DNA of 64,000 nucleotides from an uncultured Chloroflexia bacterium (lineage in GTDB: Bacteria; Chloroflexota; Limnocylindria; Limnocylindrales; CSP1-4). This document shows, piece by piece, positions 53,605-62,362 of the stretch (position 1 is its first letter; each line of letters starts with the position of its first letter). The stretch spans positions 216,862 through 280,861 of the forward strand of contig CAVXNF010000001.1 of the NCBI GenBank assembly GCA_963763075.1, written 5' to 3'. Below the pieces are notes generated by a model. It worked only from the letters and a program-made list of their open reading frames with translations, ran no database searches and was not told the origin of the DNA. A program made the position numbers and the translations under genes.

Positions 53605-54742
53605 TGGCCGAGCGACTCGAACCAGGGCGCCGTCACGAGCTCCGGCGTGTCGAGCGCGGGCAGCTGCTGGCCGAGCTCCTCGATCGTGGTGATCGAGTTG
53701 TCGCGCAGGAACTGCTGGGTGATGAGCGCGGGGTTGACGACGATCTGGGGATCGACCGTCTCGCCTGCGGCAACAGGGCGGCGGCGCGGACCGCGACCCG
53801 GCCCACGTTGCCCGGATCGGTGCCGGCGGTCGCGACCCACGGGCTGTTCTCCGCGGTGAGCACCGCGATGTCGGCCGTGGAGATGTCGGCGCCGTACACC
53901 TTGACCGAGTCCTGGAGCCCGGCTGCCTCGACGGCGAGGACGGCGCCCTTGGCGAACTCGTCGTACGGGGCGAAGATCGCCTTGATGCCCGGGTTGGCCG
54001 TGAGGACGGCCGCGGCCTGGGTCTGGACCTCGGCGGCGGTGGAGTCGCTCACGGTGCCGAACGTCGCGACGTTCTTGAGGCCCGGGTTCGCGGCGAGCAC
54101 CTCCTCGAACACCTCGTTGCGGCGGTCGAGCGGCGCGAAGCCGGCGACGTACACGTAGGCGATGTCACCCTCGCCGCCGGTGTCGGTCAGGAGCTGGTCG
54201 AGGGCCAGCTGGGCGAGCTGGGCGTCCGACTGCTCGATCTGCGGGACCTTGGGGTTGTTCGCGTTGGCGTCGAACGCGACGACCGGGATGTTGGCGGCGA
54301 GCGCCTTCTCGATGCCCGGCGTCAGGGTCTCGGTCTGGCCGTGGTCGATGATGATCGCCTTGACGCCCTGGTTGATCGCGGTCTCGAGGTTGGTCGCCTG
54401 GGCGGCGTTGTCGCCGCGGGCGTCCGAGGTGAGGAGCTCGATGCCCAGCTTCTCGGCCTGCGCCTCGGCGCCGGCGAGCCACTGCTCGAAGTAGTCGCCC
54501 GAGCCGAGCTGGCGGACGAGCGCGACCTGGACGGGCGGGGCGTCGAACGGCGCGGGAACGGCGGCGCCGGCGGATGCCGACTCGCTGGCCGCGGCCGACT
54601 CGCTGGCGGCGGCCGAGGGGGCCTCGCTCGCGGCGGAGGCGCTCGGGCTTGCGGTGCCGCCCTGCGAGCAGGCGGCGACGAACAAGGAGAGTGCGGTGAG
54701 GCTCGCGAAGGCGAGCCTCCGAGGTGTGCGGGACGTGGTCAT
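53601..54742 (-). CDS. CUT2 substrate-binding lipoprotein (probably methylthioribose)
   Basis: Lipobox 'FVAAC', Ser/Ala linker, RbsB-like motifs 'IPVVAFD', 'FAPYDEFAKG'; co-oriented with mtnK. Confidence 0.85.
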
Positions 54743-54889
54743 GGGATGGGACTCCTGGTCGATGTGTCGGGAAGGCGCCCGGTCGGGCCGGGCATGGCGG
54801 GGACGCGAGGCCGGCCGGGTCGGTGCTCCGTCAGGAGGACCGCGGTCGCACTCGCCGGGTACACCGCATCGGGACCCGCGCACGCCGGG

Positions 54890-56110
54890 TCACCGGGACG
54901 CCGCCGTGGGCTCGCGGAGCTCGTCCTGGACGATGGTCCAGAGGTCGGTCGGGCCGTCGATCGCCGCCCGCTCCAGGACGAACCGGCGGCCGAAGCGGAG
55001 CACGGCGGCCGCGGCGACGGACCGGTCCGGCTCGTCGAGCGTCTCGATGTCGCTCACGTGGGCGAACCCGATCATCCGGCGGATCGCCTTGGTCCCGGCG
55101 AAGCCCACGGCGTCGCGCCAGACGTCCCGCACCCATGCCTCGCGGAACCCGTCGTCGAGGAACGGGTCGGCCCGCTCGGGCCACAGGCGGGCGAGCTCCA
55201 TCCGGAACGCGTCCCACGAGGCGCGGACGATCGAGGCGAGGTGCGCGCGGAACGGCTCCGGGCGGCCGAGGCGGGCGGCGCGGGCATCGGCGATCGCCGC
55301 GTTGGCCCACAGGGCGCCGAGGTCGAACGCGACCGGCCCGTAGAACGCGAACTCGGGGTCGATCACGACCGTCCGGCCGCCGCCGACCATCACCGAGCCC
55401 GTGTGGAGGTCGCCGTGGATGAGCGCCTCGGCGTGGGTCCGGAACACGTGCTTGAGGAGGCCGACCTCGCGCCGCAGCCCCGCGTCGGCGCGCAGCTCCG
55501 CGACGAGCCCGTCGAGCGGCGGGTGGTGCCAGTTGTGCTCGTGCTCGAGGTACGGCTCGGTGAGGACCAGGTCCTCGGTGATCCGGCACAGCTCCGGGTT
55601 GCTCGAGGCCACGAGGCGCGCCTTGCGCTCCTCCGGCTGGAGCCCGAAGTCCGAGGTCCAGAACGCGACCCGCGCGACGAACCGCCGATCGTGCCCGCCG
55701 CGCCCTGGTGGATCTCGCCGTCGTTGAGCGCGCCGCGCCACACGCGCAGGTCGCCGAGGTCCTCGAGCGCGATGACGTAGCGGGCCTCGTCGAAGCCGAG
55801 ATAGGCCGGCAGCGCCTCGCCCGCGACCGGCGTGTACGCCTCGTAGGCATGCGCCTCGCTGACCGCCCGCTCCACGGTGAGCGGCCACCCCTCGCCGAAC
55901 ACCCGCACCCACGGCAGCGACTGCTTGAGCACGATGCCCGGCACGTCGGGCTCGGCCGCCGAGCGCACGATGAACACGAGGTTGAGGTTCCCGTCCCCCA
56001 CCTCGCGCACCGTCAGCGGGCCGGCGGGCAGCCGCGCACGCAGGTCAGGGCGACCGTCGAGGTACGCCTCGACGGCACCCGCCTCGAGCGGCTCGTAGCC
56101 GTCCGGGACG
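54890..56110 (-). CDS. mtnK: 5-methylthioribose kinase (start approximate)
   Basis: 'EVGDGNLNLVF', 'KQSLPWVR..GEGWPL', 'NPELCRITEDLV', 'LIHGDLHTGS', 'IDPEFAFYGP', 'RRMIGFAHV'. Confidence 0.93.
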
Positions 56111-56111
56111 G

Positions 56112-56546
56112 TCAGTCGATCCACACCCGGTCCTGGTTGTCGGGATCGTCGATCGGCGACGAGATGAACAGCACCTGGGGCGGCGTGTCGAACTGGCCGC
56201 CGTGGGGCGTGTTGGCCGGGATGACCCAGACGTCGCCCTGCTTGACCGGCCGGGTCACGCCACCGACGGTGACCGAGCCGCTGCCCTCGAGCACGTAGCC
56301 GATCTCGTCGTGGGTGACGTGGACGTGGCTGCGGAACGGCCCCGCGTGGCCCTGGAACACGAACACGCTGGACTGGGTGCCGTGCCCGATGTAGGTCCGC
56401 CTGAACACGTCGGCGTCGGTCAGCTTGTCCGCCTCGACCGCCCTGGCGACGTCGACGAAGTCGACCTTCGTCAACGGGAGCGCCTGCTGGCAGGTGGGGC
56501 ACAGGTGGCGGTGCTCGGCGTCCTCGCCGTCGTGGCCGTGGGTCAT
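56112..56546 (-). CDS. Cupin-domain protein with N-terminal His/CxxC segment
   Basis: 'HVH..HDE..YVLEG.G', 'GDVWVIPANTPHG'; N-terminal 'HRHLCPTC'. Confidence 0.85.
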   Translation of the reverse strand: MTHGHDGEDAEHRHLCPTCQQALPLTKVDFVDVARAVEADKLTDADVFRRTYIGHGTQSSVFVFQGHAGPFRSHVHVTHDEIGYVLEGSGSVTVGGVTRPVKQGDVWVIPANTPHGGQFDTPPQVLFISSPIDDPDNQDRVWID

Positions 56547-56550
56547 GGGA

Positions 56551-57193
56551 TCAGTCCTCCCGCTGGTGGCCGCGACGCGCGACCGTGGCTTCGAACAGGA
56601 AGTGGTAGACCTCGGTGTGGCGCTTCGCGTCCCATACCCCGTCGCCCCAGATGTAGGCGCCGTGGTCGCGGACGAGGACGGCGCACGCCGTGGCGAACCG
56701 CGGGTCCTCGAACACCGCGGTCAGCTGCTCCACGAGCTCCGCCTCGCGCGGCGTGTTCCGGATCACCGGCACGAGGTGGACGTCCTGGTTGCCCACGCCC
56801 GGGATGCCCTTGAGCATCTCCAGGTCGCGGATCTCGAGGTGGTCGCCGCGGTTGGTCACGAGGTCCGCCGCGAGGACCGCGGTGAGGGCATGCGAGTGGA
56901 CGACGCTCCACGCGGCGCGCTTCCGATGCGTCAGGCCGAAGATCGCGTTGCACTCGCTGGGGCGGAGGCTCGGGTCGTCGGCCGGCCGGATGACGTGCCC
57001 GTCCTGCGGGTCGACGACGAAGAACTCGCTCGGGCCGGACGCGCTCCTTGAGGACGCCGGTCGGGGCGAGGAGCAGGCCGCCGTCGTCGGCCGGGCCGCA
57101 GATCCCGCCGCCCGTGCCGGAGACCCAGCCGCGGCCGTGGAACTCCCGGAGGAGCTCGACGAGGATCTCGCGGGTCTGCTGCTCGCCGGTCAT
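56551..57193 (-). CDS. mtnB: Methylthioribulose-1-phosphate dehydratase, frameshifted
   Basis: '[10 protein letters not shown]', 'APTGVLKER', 'PSEC', 'VVHSH', 'EMLKGI', 'VPVIRNTP', 'VLVRDHG.YIWG'. Confidence 0.85.
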
Positions 57194-58248
57194 CGGCCGA
57201 CCAGCCGGGCGATCGCGGGCCCGAACGGCGGCTCGAGCACGCCGCCGTCGGTGACGAACGCGGTGATGAGCCCGGCCGGGGTGACGTCGAAGGCCGGGTT
57301 CCAGACGTCGATCGCCTCGGGGGCGACCCGCCGGCCGCCGAGCGCCCTGACCTCGTCGCCGTCGCGCTCCTCGACGACGATCGCGGCGCCGTCGGGGAGG
57401 CTCGTGTCGAACGTGCTGCGCGGCCCGGCCACGAGGAACGGGATGCCGTGGTGGCGGGCGAGGACCGCCAGCCCGTAGGTGCCGATCTTGTTGGCGGTGT
57501 CCCCGTTCGCGGCAACCCGGTCGCAGCCCACGATGACGGCGTCGACCTGCCCGGTCGCCATCGCCGCGCCGGCCGCGCCATCGACGACGAGCCGGGCGGG
57601 AATGCCGGCCTGGGCCAGCTCCCAGGCCGTCAGGCGGCCGCCCTGGAGGAGCGGCCGGGCTTCCGTCGCGATGACCCCGTCGAGGCGACCGGCGGCATGG
57701 AGCGCGTACACGATGGCGAGCGCGGTCCCGTCGCCGCCGGTCGCGAGCCGGCCCGTGTTGCAGTGGGTAAGGATCCGGCGCGGGCCCTCGAGGTAGGCGA
57801 CCGCCGTGCGGCGGCGATCGCCGCGCAGGCGGCCGCGTCCTCGGCGTGGATCGCCCGTGCCTCGGCCAGGGCCGCGTCGCGGATCGCATCGACGTCGTCC
57901 GGGGCGGCGGCGACGGCACCGGCCACCCGCTCGACCGCCCAGCGGAGGTTGACCGCCGTCGGCCGGGCGTCGCCGATGCGGTCCGCCAGCCGGCGGCGTC
58001 TCGGCCCGCGCCGCCGGCGCATCCGCGAACGCCGCGCTGCGCAGCCCGAGCGCGACGCCGTACGCCCCCGCGATGCCGATCGCCGGAGCGCCGCGGACCG
58101 CGAGCGTCCGGATCGCGTCCACGACCTCGTCGACCGTGCCGAGGCGCCACTCGACGAGCGCGTCGGGCAGGCGGCGCTGGTCCACGATGACGGGGGCGTC
58201 ATCCGACCAGGCGATCGCGGCGAGGCGGGAGGCGGATTGCAGGGGCAC
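57190..58248 (-). CDS. mtnA: Methylthioribose-1-phosphate isomerase
   Basis: 'DQRRLP', 'VRGAPAIG', 'RPTAVNL', '[11 protein letters not shown]', '[14 protein letters not shown]', '[11 protein letters not shown]', 'NPAFDVTP'. Confidence 0.95.
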
Positions 58249-58252
58249 GGAT

Positions 58253-58366
58253 ACCTCGATGGATCGAGGCCGGGCCCTGGGTGCGGTACCGGCCTCAGGT
58301 GGTCTGGAGGCCGGGCGGGCGAAGCGGAGGGGTCAGTCCCTCGACGCCTCGCCGGACAGCCCGGCC
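58253..58366 (-). promoter_or_regulatory. Alternative hairpins of a putative translational attenuator
   Basis: Overlapping complementary segments linking the uORF 3' half to the mtnA RBS (see findings). Confidence 0.6.
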
Positions 58367-58422
58367 GGACACATGCACATGGGACACGTGCGACACGGGC
58401 TCAGGCGGACCGGGGTGGACAT
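58333..58422 (-). CDS. Leaderless Cys/Met-rich leader peptide (29 aa; not in ORF track)
   Basis: MSTPVRLSPCRTCPMCMCPAGLSGEASRD*; TATAGT -10 hexamer (58430-35) 7 nt before the ATG. Confidence 0.7.
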   Translation of the reverse strand: MSTPVRLSPCRTCPMCMCPAGLSGEASRD

Positions 58423-58677
58423 GGGCGGGACTATACGGGACCCCACCAGCGGTCGAGCGTTGCGATCCGGTGTCGGTTACGACGGAACAGGACCCCGCAG
58501 CGCCGGGATCTGAACGGGGACGGCGGCCCGTGGTGCGTCCCCGCACCACCCCGGGTGGGCCATCCGGGTGAGGGTGCATCGGGGCACCAGTGGGACGTTC
58601 TTCCCGTGGCTCGGATCGAAGCCGGTGCCTACGGTGTGGACCAGGAGCAACCCTCCTCGTCCTGTCGGAGAGCTGTC

Positions 58678-59629
58678 GTGCACTTCCCCCTCGCTACCGC
58701 CCTGCGTCGCGCCGCCCTCGCCCTCGCCGTGGCGGCCACGCTCGCGCCGCTGTTCGCGCCGCCGCCTGCGAAGGCCGCGGACCTGACCGGCTTCTACACG
58801 GACTTCGCGTCCGAGGAGCTGATGCGCCTGACGAACCTCGACCGGCGTGCCCTCGGCAAGTCCTCGCTCAAGGTCGACCAGTTCCTCGTGTCGCTCGCCC
58901 GTGACCGCGAGTTCAAGTGCCCGTCCAACGGCAACACGTACCGCGGCCGCGCCCGGGACATGGCCGTCCGCGACTACATGAGCCACTCGGTCAAGGGGTG
59001 CCGCAAGAAGAACGGCTCCCCGTTCACGATCCAGACGATCCTGCGCAAGCACGGCTACTCGACCTACACGGGCGAGAACATCGGCGTCAACAACTGGCCG
59101 GACACCGGCGCGACCTACAAGTTCGGCTGCTCGTCGTCCGGGTCGGGCTGCGACGGCACGACCACGAGCACCGCGCCGGTGGCGACCGTCCAGAAGATGT
59201 GGATGCGCAGCTCGGGTCACCGCTACAACATCCTGGCCGGCTACGACCGGTTCGGCTGCGCGGCGTGGAATCGCAGCGACGGGCAGAAGTACTTCGCCTG
59301 CATCTTCGCCAAGGGCGGCCCCAAGCCGATCGACGGCAGCTGCGCCGTCCGTCGGCAGCCTGTCCGGCGACGACTCGCTGCGGCGCACCGACAAGGCGAC
59401 GTTCAGCGCCAGCTTCGGCGACGGCTTCCGCCTCTCGGACGGCTCGGTGCAGATCGACGGCTCGACGAAGTCCGGCTGGTCCTACGACCTCAACGTGACC
59501 GGCGACACGCGGCGGTACACGGTCGACGCCGCGTCGCTCTCGACGGGGACGCACACGCTCACCTGGTCGGTGCGCGACGTGGCGGGCCACGTGACCAAGA
59601 AGAGCGTGACCTTCACGATCGGCTCCTGA
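58678..59629 (+). CDS. Secreted CAP/SCP-domain protein with C-terminal Ig-like domain, one frameshift
   Basis: Signal peptide; 'LTNLDR', 'DMAVRDYMSH', 'GENIG', 'WMRSSGHRYNIL'; 'LSTGTHTLT.SVRDVAGH'. Confidence 0.82.
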
Positions 59630-59675
59630 CGGCGGCGGGGACGACGGCCACCGGGGCCTCGGGACCCGCGCGTCG

Positions 59676-60346
59676 CTAGGCGGGCTGCTCCGCCCACAGC
59701 CCGCGGACGTGCCCGATGTGCGAGCGCATCACCGCCTCCGCGCCGGGCCCGTCGCGAGCCTCGATGCGGTCGAGGAGCTCCGCGTGCTCGTGCCACGAGG
59801 CGAACAGCGCGTCGCGGTGCGACTCGTCGCGCAGGCCGTAGAGCCGGGAGTGCATCCGCAGCGAGCGGACGAGCTCGACGATCCGCGGGTTGCCCGCGAG
59901 CTCGAGCAGCGCGAGATGGAACTCGAGGTCGAGCGCGACGTGGGCGACGAAGTCACGCCGCGACGCCGCCTCCTCGATCTCGTCGGTGAGCGGCCGGAGT
60001 CGCGTCGAGGTCGGCGGCCGGACACGCCGCGCTCGGCGAGCGCGCGGATCGTGGGCACCTCGACGAGCGCCCGCAGCTCGGTCACGTCGTCGAGCTCCTC
60101 GGGCGACGGGCTCGTGACCCGGAAGCCCTTGTTGCGCACGATCTCGACGAGCCCTTCCTTCTCGAGGTCGAGCATCGCCTCGCGGACGGGCGTCGCCGAG
60201 ACGCCGAACTGCTCGGCGAGGCTGGGCGCGGAGTACGTGACGCCGGGCTCGAGCTCGCCGGCCATGACGGCGGCGCGCAGCAGCTCCGTGATCTCCTCGC
60301 GCAGGCTGCGGCGCCCGCGGAGGGACGGCAGCCCGGCGGCGGTCAC
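59676..60346 (-). CDS. GntR/FCD transcriptional regulator (HypR-like)
   Basis: 'GELEPG..YS..LAEQFGVSATPVREAM', 'DLEFH', 'EHAELL'. Confidence 0.9.
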
Positions 60347-61348
60347 AGCTCGAAGCCCTCCGGGAACGGGTCGCGCGGGTCGAGCATGTACTGGGCGGTG
60401 CCCGTGACCCAGGCCCGGCCGGTGATCGTCGGCACGACCGCCGGCACCCCGCCGACCTGCGTCTCCTCGACCAGCCGGCCGATGAACGTCGTGCCGATGA
60501 ACGAGTCGTTGCGGAAGTCCTGGTGCAGCGGCAGCAGGCCGCGGGCGTGGAGCTGGGCCATCCGCGCGGACGTCCCCGTGCCGCACGGCGAGCGGTCGAA
60601 CCAGCCGGGGTGGATGGCCATCGCGTGGCGGCTGTGGCGGGCGTCGGAGCCGGGCGCGGCGAGATACACGTGGTGGACGCCGGCGATCTCGCGGGTTCTC
60701 GGGATGGACGGGCGGCGCGGACGGCGTTGATCGCGGCCATGATCTCGAGCCCGGCGTCGAGCAGGTCGTCCTTGCGCGCGCGGTCGAACGGCAGGCCGAG
60801 GTCGTCGAGCTCGACCAGCGCGTAGAAGTTGCCGCCGTACGCGAGGTCGTAGCGCACGTCGCCGAACCCCGGGACGTTCGCGATCGCGGTCCGTCGCGAC
60901 GCAGAACGACGGCACGTTGCGGAGCGTGACCGACATCGCGCGCGCCGTCCTCGACCGCGACGTCGACGACGACCAGCCCGGCCGGCGTCTCGAGGCGGAT
61001 CGTCGTCACGGGCTCCGTGACCTCGACCATGCCGGTCTCGACGAGGACGGTGGCGACGCCGATCGTGCCGTGCCCGCACATCGGCAGGCAGCCCGACACC
61101 TCGATGAACAGCACCCCGAAGTCGGCGTCGGGCCGGGTCGGCGGCTGGAGGATCGCGCCGCTCATCGACGCGTGGCCGCGCGGCTCGTACATGAGCAGCT
61201 TCCGGACGTGGTCCAGGTGCTCGAGGAAGTACCGCCGGCGCTCGAACATCGAGGCGCCCGGGATCACGCCGATCCCGCCCGTGATCACGCGGGTCGGCAT
61301 GCCCTCGGTGTGCGAGTCGACCGCGTGGAAGACGCGCTTCGTGCGCAT
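60343..61348 (-). CDS. Proline racemase family, probable 4-hydroxyproline 2-epimerase
   Basis: 'DSHTEGMPTR', 'EPRGH', Cys/Cys pair 'MCGH' and 'DRSPCGTGT'; frameshifts. Confidence 0.88.
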
Positions 61349-61352
61349 CGGG

Positions 61353-62290
61353 TCAGGCGACGCCGGCCGGGGTGCGCTCCGGGGCGAGGCCGGCCGCGAT
61401 CGCGGCCTCCGTGTCGCGCGCGGACCCGGGCGTCCTGCTCCGCGGTGAGCGGCTCGCGCGGCGGGCGGCACGGGCCGCCGTACCGGCCGACGAGGTCCAT
61501 CGACAGCTTGATCGCCTGCACGAACTCGGTCTTCGAGTCCCAGCGGAGGAGCGGATGCAGCTGGCGGTAGAGCGGCAGCGCGGTGTCGAGGTCGCGCGCG
61601 GTCGCCGCGGCCCACAGGTCCGCACACGCGCGCGGGAACGCGTTGGGATAGCCGGCGACCCAGCCCGGCGCGCCCGCGATCGCGAGCTCCAGGACGACGT
61701 CGTCCGAGCCGCACACGACGTCGAGGCCCGGGGCGAGCTCGTTGACCTGGTAGATCCGGCGCACGTCGCCGCTGAACTCCTTGACCGCGACGATCAGGCC
61801 CTCGTGCCACAGCTCCGCGAGCAGCTCCGGGACGAGGTCGACCTTCGTGTCGAACGGGTTGTTGTAGGCCATGATCGGCAGCCCGGCCTTCGCGACCTCG
61901 CGGTAGTGGGCGACGACCGCGCGCGGGTCGGCGCGGTAGCTGTTGGGCGGCAGGAGCATCACGCACTGGGCGCCGGCCTCGGCGGCCTGCTCGGCCCACC
62001 GGCGCGCCTCGTCGGCGCCGTACGCCGCGACGCCGGGCATGACGGTGAACCCGGCGGGCGACGCCTCGACGGCCGTCGTCACGACGCGGCGCGCGGTCCG
62101 CGGCGCTCAGCGTCTGGTACTCCCCGAGCGAGCCGTTGGGGACGACGCCGTGGGACCCGTTGTCGGCCAGCCAGCGGACGTGGTCCGCGTAGGCGTCGAA
62201 GTCGGGCTGGAGCTCGCCACGGGCGTCCGGGCGCATCGGCAGGGCGGTCGCGACGAGGATCCCGTGCCAGGGCGTCGTCATCGGGGTCAT
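61353..62290 (-). CDS. DHDPS/NAL-family protein, probable pyrroline-4-hydroxy-2-carboxylate deaminase
   Basis: 'NGSLGEY', 'MAYNNP', 'AVKEFSGD', 'FVQAIKL', 'CRPPR'; gene context. Confidence 0.82.
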
Positions 62291-62326
62291 GGCGTGTCTC
62301 CTCGAGCAGTCGGTCCGTCGTCGTCG

Positions 62327-62362
62327 CAGTGCAATGTTACATGGTACTGAGCGCGGATGCAA
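62327..62362 (-). promoter_or_regulatory. Sigma-70-type promoter overlapped by a probable GntR operator
   Basis: Minus strand TTGCAT-17nt-TAACAT; cagtgcaatgttac with ATGT-T-ACAT dyad over the -10 box. Confidence 0.65.

Follow-up and report, generated by a model that had tools for sequence, protein, structure and literature searches.

The window analysed here is a 64,000-nucleotide stretch of DNA from an uncultured bacterium of the phylum Chloroflexota (contig CAVXNF010000001.1 of assembly GCA_963763075.1, positions 216,862 to 280,861 of the forward strand), and the element in question is the leader of an apparent minus-strand operon for methylthioribose and methionine salvage that opens with an accessory copy of mtnA. 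The genome of the window (G000) is a 3.79-Mb metagenome-assembled genome (MAG) in 20 contigs, with a G+C content of 72.6% and a completeness scored at 70.7%, in which several genes change frame; a second species of the same genus, represented by genome G018, also carries the leader. The leader lies in the intergenic region 58249–58680, between mtnA and a divergent plus-strand gene, and combines a −10-like hexamer, a short upstream open reading frame (uORF) with clustered Cys and Met codons, and a series of RNA segments that can pair in alternative ways up to the Shine–Dalgarno (SD) sequence of mtnA:

58430–58435, minus strand: −10-like hexamer TATAGT, read from the sequence, 7 nucleotides (58429–58423) before the ATG of the uORF
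58333–58422, minus strand: uORF of 29 codons and a stop, translating as MSTPVRLSPCRTCPMCMCPAGLSGEASRD, from ATG (58422–58420) to TGA (58335–58333)
58369–58395, minus strand: Cys/Met codon cluster by translation, codons 10–18 (TGT CGC ACG TGT CCC ATG TGC ATG TGT)
58359–58366, minus strand: segment 1, GGCCGGGC, in uORF codons 19–22, identical in G018 and predicted to pair with 58309–58316 when a ribosome masks the early Cys codons
58318–58353, minus strand: uORF-stop hairpin in the folds, with a 9-bp and a 5-bp stem and the stop codon in the loop, the stems near-invariant between G000 and G018
58307–58316, minus strand: segment 2, GCCCGGCCUC, with segment 1 or segment 3 as its partner in the folds
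58289–58296, minus strand: segment 3, GAGGCCGG, with segment 2 or segment 4 as its partner in the folds
58264–58273, minus strand: segment 4, CCGGCCUCGA, the anti-SD, with segment 3 or the SD as its partner in the folds
58253–58259, minus strand: UCGAGGU with the mtnA SD GAGGU, paired with segment 4 in the predicted free RNA

An earlier note, made from the letters of the window alone, had described this anatomy (TATAGT, 7 nucleotides, ATG, a Cys/Met frame and a stop 84 nucleotides before mtnA), and its description proved correct to the base. Codons 10–18 read C R T C P M C M C, so that nine codons hold two Met and four Cys, three of the latter being TGT and one TGC; the uORF has no SD of its own, and the spacer of 84 nucleotides runs from its stop to the GTG of mtnA at 58248. 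Such a density of codons is not in itself unique, since a six-frame scan of the G000 genome found 14 nine-codon windows with six Cys/Met among 7,581,980, and 75 merged places with five Cys/Met including at least three Cys. The pairings named in the same note, in which segments 2, 3 and 4 were called A, B and C, are all present in the sequence and in the folds: 58359–58366 (GGCCGGGC) pairs with 58309–58316 (GCCCGGCC), 58345–58353 (GGCGAGGCG) with 58318–58326 (CGCUUCGCC), and 58338–58342 (GAGGG) with 58327–58331 (CCCUC), while A (58307–58314, CCGGCCUC) pairs with B (58289–58296), B with C (58266–58273, CCGGCCUC), and C (58264–58270) with UCGAGGU (58253–58259). No intrinsic-terminator-like site is present in 58150–58750, and the sequence that follows the hairpin formed by segments 2 and 3 is UACCGCACCC. 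Searches of 57800–59000 against Rfam 15, including the SAM riboswitch models, gave no relevant match at E values up to 10, only chance matches.

The genes that follow the leader are, judging by domain and family profiles, those of methylthioribose uptake and salvage, in the order mtnA, mtnB, cupin gene, mtnK and binding-protein gene:

57190–58248, minus strand: mtnA, S-methyl-5-thioribose-1-phosphate isomerase, accessory second copy (Pfam IF-2B; NCBIfam TIGR00512, 335.9 bits in two stretches)
56547–57189, minus strand: mtnB-like class II aldolase gene, limits approximate and frame broken (Aldolase_II match in the 56543–58150 frame)
56112–56546, minus strand: gene for a cupin-domain protein with a weak ARD-like match in the domain search, 91.5% identical in nucleotides to the G018 gene
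54890–55912, minus strand: mtnK, S-methyl-5-thioribose kinase, C-terminal two thirds in frame (Pfam APH; TIGR01767, 268.3 bits, profile positions 137–400)
53633–54883, minus strand: gene for a ribose-type periplasmic sugar-binding protein, a candidate methylthioribose uptake component (Peripla_BP_4; RbsB-like in NCBIfam, well below the cut-off)

The Pfam and NCBIfam profiles thereby bear out methionine salvage as the target that the earlier note had proposed. In G018 the mtnB homologue is intact and matches TIGR03328 with 148.8 bits, a ribose-type binding-protein gene also follows, and the cupin gene is under clear purifying selection between the two species, with 96–97% identity at codon positions 1 and 2 and 81% at third positions. 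The core mtnA copy of G000 lies on another contig (C5, about 370.9–371.9 kb) and is 80.8% identical to that of G018. The copy in the window is instead closest to a gene of G093 (locus L004), with 60–65% identity, and no such leader is found at this locus.

The leader was recognized in G018 by a search of 61 relatives with a 301-nucleotide DNA query (E = 3.9e-34), the second match of which was a stretch of 32 nucleotides inside mtnA of G027. The G018 copy reads TATATT, 7 nucleotides, ATG, MTSRLAPMCLCSACRMCMRAAGRPGEASRA and TAG, with the same −10 spacing as in G000, and its uORF differs in length by a single in-frame indel of 3 nucleotides; the stop stands at the same codon, with two of its three letters changed (TGA to TAG). 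Each species has four Cys codons, three in common and one private, and ATG-TGC-ATG is common to both. Within codons 2–19, the Cys/Met codons are identical at 16 of 18 nucleotides, compared with 19 of 33 for the other codons (Fisher p = 0.028). Identity between the two leaders is 68.5% in the 5′ half of the uORF and 79.3% in its 3′ half and the spacer, against 60–63% for the promoter and the DNA upstream of it; on this sequence comparison the leader appears constrained relative to flanking non-coding DNA, though not strikingly. The uORF-stop hairpin shows one G–C to G–U change at its outer pair, together with different loop letters, and segment 4 of G018 has one internal mismatch to segment 3.

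The leader region of the window, or that of close relatives, occurs in RNA libraries: contigs from two metatranscriptome libraries cover 58268–58419 (X16), 58397–58590 (X16) and 58131–58318 (X18). This evidence consists of assembled contigs only, in which 5′ ends, strands and levels are unreadable and uncovered parts carry no meaning, and carried-over DNA is a possible source. In the X16 variant the uORF reads UCU for UCC, a synonymous difference, and the innermost pair of the 9-bp stem is opened by one further change. Two more contigs, both with the G018-type leader, came from scanning metagenome contigs for the pattern.

The uORF can be read as leaderless because the −10-like hexamer lies 7 nucleotides upstream and an SD is lacking. 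The mtnB gene follows TANNNT, 6 nucleotides and ATG, also with no SD, in all five of the homologues inspected (L042, L044, L045, L048 and L057), and leaderless starts therefore look normal in this lineage. Zheng et al. (PMC3160421) estimated that leaderless genes were few in those Chloroflexi that were available at the time.

We infer the transcription start site (TSS), the translation of the uORF, the stalling and the relay itself. Transcription would start at the ATG of the uORF or within one or two bases of it, and the uORF would be translated as a leaderless message. With plentiful Cys-tRNA, and perhaps Met-tRNA, the ribosome would reach the stop codon in the loop of the conserved hairpin; after this read-through, segment 2 would pair with segment 3 and segment 4 with the SD of mtnA, and the operon would be poorly translated. 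A ribosome waiting at the first Cys codons would open the hairpin inside the uORF and allow segment 1 to capture segment 2, whereupon segment 3 would capture segment 4, the anti-SD, during its transcription, leaving the SD more open.

The predicted folds are consistent with parts of this scheme. None of 200 dinucleotide shuffles folds as well as the 183-nucleotide G000 leader (z = −3.74), while for the G018 copy (z = −1.79) 11 of 200 do. Ribosome positions were modelled on RNAs of 198 nucleotides, with a mask of 30 nucleotides, and on RNAs of 178 (G000) or 180 (G018) nucleotides ending 8 nucleotides past the SD. In the 198-nucleotide RNA, the 1:2 and 2:3 pairings exchange with the position of the ribosome. 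In the two shorter RNAs, the free molecule adopts 2:3 together with 4:SD, a ribosome that has C10 or C13 of G000, or C9 of G018, in its A site gives 1:2 and 3:4 with the SD released from segment 4, and a ribosome on later codons or at the stop gives the closed form in both species, the last of these being the read-through state that the earlier note had predicted. On an early-Cys stall the ensemble probability that the SD is unpaired rises in G000 from 0.14 to 0.40 and in G018 from 0.00 to 0.21, and the cost of forcing 3:4 in G000 falls from 4.4 kcal/mol in the free RNA to 0.5–1.4 kcal/mol in the stalled RNA.

Control of mtn genes by RNA has a counterpart in the S-box (SAM-I) riboswitches, which are said, in work ascribed to Murphy, Grundy and Henkin in 2002, to lie upstream of Bacillus mtn genes. 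The leader described here would likewise be an RNA-level control of methylthioribose recycling tied to sulfur amino-acid status; unlike the S-box, which binds a metabolite and has no open reading frame, it has a uORF and matches no SAM riboswitch model. To our knowledge, cysteine-reading leader-peptide attenuation has been shown experimentally only in mycobacteria.

The mycobacterial leaderless polycysteine open reading frames of Canestrari et al. (10.1101/834739), among them Ms5788A of the ‘Cys ribulon’, relieve SD sequestration when ribosomes pause on Cys codons; they were sought by a criterion of at least two consecutive Cys codons, and in their main case, Ms5788A, the direct pairing partner of the SD region is the stretch of Cys codons itself. 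The mtn leader resembles them in having a short open reading frame at the proposed 5′ end of the messenger RNA (mRNA), with no SD and with Cys codons as the proposed sensor, in heading a sulfur-metabolism operon (mtnA, mtnB, methylthioribose kinase, cupin and binding protein), in a downstream SD that predicted RNA pairing would sequester, and in a proposed control at the level of translation with no U-tract terminator. It differs in that its Cys codons are interleaved with Met codons, in its host phylum, the Chloroflexota, and in its target, a methylthioribose salvage operon. Unlike that of Ms5788A, the closed SD of the mtn leader always pairs in the folds with the local segment 4 (58264–58273) and never with the Cys codons, and the effect of the uORF would pass along a relay of three steps. 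The mtn leader most likely works like the mycobacterial Cys leaders, but it lacks two of their defining features, the consecutive Cys codons and the direct pairing of Cys codons with the SD.

Other systems share further elements. Like the trp, his and leu attenuators and the cysS uORFC-8-2 motif of Rhodobacterales, for which Brewer et al. (2021; PMC8632094) describe a uORF with Cys codons in tandem as well as a terminator, the mtn leader has an open reading frame with putative regulatory codons and mutually exclusive hairpins 1:2, 2:3 and 3:4; unlike them, it has no intrinsic terminator, and its final hairpin hides the SD. In the translational attenuation of ermCL and cat (discussed in 10.1101/834739), a drug-stalled ribosome on the leader open reading frame refolds the mRNA and frees the next SD, as is proposed here, except that the stall would come from scarce charged tRNA and not from a drug. 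Seliverstov et al. (2005; PMC1262725) predicted leader peptides with runs of Cys codons upstream of cys and cbs genes in Actinobacteria, and reported no RNA element upstream of methionine genes. The mtn uORF is similarly short, with Cys codons near its stop and no terminator hairpin, but it lacks Cys runs and precedes a salvage operon in place of genes for cysteine synthesis. In the full-text literature, with subscription journals largely outside it, no leader peptide with Met codons, or with Cys and Met codons mixed, was found for genes that make or salvage methionine, and no leader-peptide control was found in Chloroflexota; the author of the earlier note likewise knew of no mixed Cys/Met attenuator for an mtn operon.

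Leaders of a similar kind stand before further sulfur amino-acid genes, in G000 as well as in its genus. The most extensive set is a family that combines conserved stems and a U-tract hairpin with a start-proximal short open reading frame built on a Met-Cys-Met core, such as M.HTT.SW.MCMRGRPRRAEDGRR. One G000 copy (contig C15, about 2869, minus strand; peptide ...SWCMCMRGRPRR...) precedes a gene for O-acetylhomoserine sulfhydrylase (TIGR01326, 521 bits), another (C5:118525, plus strand) lies before an SBP_bac_3 gene, and a third leader open reading frame of this kind, MTSPVRSTAMCCCMQ... (C11:117539, plus strand), precedes a beta-carbonic anhydrase gene in a leader with conserved stems and a U-tract hairpin. 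The family was collected at loci L058–L087, L123 and L124, and its profile gives 26 matches in 30 genus loci; the identity of the downstream gene is confirmed for the copies in G000 and for four that are linked to OsmC. Of the 26 printed peptides, 21 contain M-C-M, and the core varies by whole codons (MCM, MMCM, MCCCM, MLM and MRM), the in-frame changes touching Cys/Met codons alone. From its sequence, with a terminal U-tract hairpin, this family has the look of a Met/Cys transcription attenuator of the classical type. Rfam contained no match for eight related leader loci. A leaderless-looking short open reading frame of a further type, M..AL.GCM..QCSCRRR.., with three conserved Cys and a −10-like hexamer, precedes a DUF4395 gene (C5:564224, plus strand) and is found at 29 of 30 genus loci (L088–L117); matches to the DNA query occur in 46 of 70 genomes.

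Homology of the mtn leader to the Met-Cys-Met family was considered and rejected: an nhmmer profile built from seven members (alignment A4) recovers the three G000 copies, and the window and G018 leaders are unmatched at E values up to 10. The two have an AUG-UGY-AUG core in common with no detectable homology.

Taken together, we judge it somewhat probable, at little better than evenly balanced odds, that the leader is a ribosome-stalling Cys/Met attenuator of the accessory methylthioribose/methionine-salvage operon. Several results weigh against this reading. The spread of the leader is narrow: a covariance model (R1) built from the G000 and G018 copies finds it in two of 70 genus genomes (G018 at 161.8 bits) and finds nothing further credible in 151 family genomes, and it is absent at 16 of 17 mtnB-relative loci, which show no Cys-rich short open reading frame and no match to the model, the seventeenth being that of G018 itself. 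The first gene of the operon also counts against it. About 190 nucleotides in the middle of the window mtnA lie in another frame, and tblastn returns it as three pieces in frames 0, 2 and 0, as the result of either gene decay or an assembly error; in G018 mtnA is absent, a remnant frame of 21 codons lying after the SD and overlapping the ATG of mtnB with its stop; and a soil DNA contig (X2, record 27) has 57349 fused to 58121, which removes 771 bp (57350–58120) inside mtnA, and spans 58121–58583, where none of the listed changes falls in the uORF. A scan for E. coli-type promoters with two hexamers found none in the leader region, which has no recognizable −35, and the X16 contig at 58397–58590, about 90% identical, crosses the proposed TSS, with DNA carry-over as a possible source. 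The leader is conserved no more strongly than the cupin gene is at its third codon positions (79% against 81%), and covariation is thin, with four double changes in 51 predicted pairs, because only two lineages carry the leader. Among 97 short open reading frames placed 6–8 nucleotides after TANNNT in G000, three have at least three Cys in 10 codons, compared with 1.3 expected (P = 0.14), so that Cys-rich leaderless-like frames are not enriched; two of the three are those ahead of the DUF4395 (C5:564224) and beta-carbonic anhydrase (C11:117539) genes. Neither mtn leader has adjacent Cys codons (C-R-T-C-P-M-C-M-C in G000 and C-L-C-S-A-C-R-M-C in G018), and, the host being a member of the Chloroflexota and no actinobacterium, contrary to what its G+C content suggests, the mycobacterial precedent is an analogy and not a matter of kinship.

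The folds add to these objections. In the 198-nucleotide RNA the SD hairpin is closed in all nine states (probability unpaired 0.17–0.18), the relay being seen with transcripts that end just past the start codon and gone with 20 more bases. Forcing 3:4 in G018 costs 9.7 kcal/mol in the free RNA and about 5 kcal/mol even with the ribosome stalled. The gain in SD accessibility, 0.26 in G000 and 0.20 in G018, is equalled by 17 and 48, respectively, of 200 shuffles of the intervening sequence, and about 77% of shuffled sequences have a paired SD in their minimum free energy fold in any case. Stalls at Met codons give the closed, OFF fold in the 178- and 180-nucleotide RNAs (M15 of G000 and M16 and M18 of G018); the sensing of Met starvation suggested in the earlier note is therefore without folding support. 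Its stall-driven switch fares better, the modelled relay operating in both species at the shorter lengths, but the SD stays closed at 198 nucleotides and the gain lies within the shuffled controls; the folding models thus depict a relay that is possible and has the same direction in both species, but that is not statistically distinguished from shuffles. Much the same division applies to the conserved uORFs and covarying stems that the earlier note had proposed to look for in relatives: start, frame, stop and Cys/Met codons are kept in G018, and the hairpin that the Cys/Met codon region forms on its own has two compensatory pairs between the species, but the former are confined to two of the 70 genus genomes and the latter stand among so few double changes overall.

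Among the alternatives, the most serious is that the leader is a structured RNA that acts with no translation of the uORF, either as an undescribed riboswitch or as a site for a protein or small RNA, in which case the frame would be a by-product of G+C-rich structure, with AUGUGCAUGUG, for instance, serving as a hairpin arm. The better conserved part of the leader is indeed its 3′ half (79% against 68.5% for the 5′ half), the G000 fold is strong, and the Cys/Met codons themselves lie in a hairpin with compensatory changes; an open frame of 30 codons is also unremarkable at 72.6% G+C, where simple arithmetic from base composition leaves about 0.6 of such frames open, and the peptide tails conserved in the Met-Cys-Met family coincide with conserved RNA stems. 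However, the stop codon has been kept in a loop whose other letters changed, the indel is in frame, the spacing from the −10-like hexamer to the ATG is kept, and the variable units of the Met-Cys-Met family are whole Cys/Met codons. With no Rfam match at E values up to 10 and no evident conserved junction resembling a ligand pocket, we regard this explanation as unlikely.

A somewhat less probable explanation is that the leader has no regulatory function and is the recently arisen 5′ region, subject to drift, of an accessory operon in decay, its likeness in G000 and G018 reflecting recent common descent. Restriction of the leader to two species, its conservation at about the level of synonymous sites in the neighbouring gene, the breakage or loss of mtnA in three lineages, the folding controls that are not significant and the unconvincing enrichment of Cys-rich frames would all fit such a history. 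Mere drift accounts less well for the 79% identity of the leader beside flanking non-coding DNA at 60–63%, for the near-identity of the Cys/Met codons (16 of 18 nucleotides) or for a stop retained through a double change; moreover, the cupin gene is still under purifying selection, and RNA-library contigs cover the leader. It is very improbable that the uORF encodes a functional Cys-rich micropeptide (metal-binding, redox or the precursor of a modified peptide) and no sensor of tRNA charging: it has four Cys in 29 residues, a count kept in both species, but its differences fall 7, 10 and 5 on codon positions 1, 2 and 3, with no protein-like constraint outside the Cys/Met codons, and the operon genes show no modifying enzymes or exporters.

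Some observations concern the surroundings of the leader and the searches. A block at about 58520–58600, upstream of the proposed promoter and with a GGTGC...GCACC-type inverted repeat, recurs in G018 and looks conserved by eye against a background of 60%. The divergent neighbour in the window (58681–59679, plus strand, start at about 58681) encodes a secreted protein of the CAP family (cysteine-rich secretory protein) with a signal peptide, and that in G018 a different protein of 401 residues with no Pfam match. Farther on, at 59676–62362 on the minus strand, GntR/FCD and proline-racemase domains fall in two long overlapping frames, which suggests more frame breaks in the assembly. A covariance-model match of 28.8 bits in G157, among the family genomes, was rejected on inspection as lying inside a long open frame. 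Cys-rich short open reading frames were also sought near 29 PF01008 loci (L004–L033 minus L027, which is the window's own), and the only recurrent one was discarded as an alternative-frame artefact: this poly-Cys ‘open reading frame’, about 1 kb from the PF01008 gene at L005, L006, L007 and L011, is the antisense frame of a conserved coding region. The conserved gene at these four loci has an in-frame TGA in the context ...NNIDSCNRT*HA..., which we take to resemble the selenocysteine site of formate-dehydrogenase-like molybdoenzymes.

The main interest of the mtn leader, read as a ribosome-stalling attenuator, lies in its company, that is, the set of Met/Cys leader open reading frames found across the sulfur amino-acid genes of this uncultured lineage from soil. 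Tentatively, and with distinctly less confidence than for the mtn leader alone, these may be seen as a Met/Cys regulon read by the ribosome, in which several unrelated leaders with leaderless or near-leaderless short open reading frames of Met-Cys-Met or Cys codons would govern the mtn operon and the genes for O-acetylhomoserine sulfhydrylase, an amino-acid binding protein, OsmC, beta-carbonic anhydrase and DUF4395 proteins, the number of Met relative to Cys codons appearing to be tuned to the operon. Such a regulon would include the first methionine-sensing leader-peptide attenuators, would mean that the mycobacterial ‘ribulon’ principle arose independently in another phylum, and would use both read-outs, the translational one (mtn) and the terminator-based one (metY-type). 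It would also provide a signature with which to search G+C-rich genomes: a −10 hexamer, 6–7 nucleotides, ATG, and M-C-M or a Cys cluster within 20 codons. If the mtn leader itself works as proposed, the ribosome would directly read the supply of sulfur amino acids in an uncultured phylum of the soil, Cys codons interleaved with Met codons could act as the sensor, and one organism could pair the same sensing idea with two output devices.

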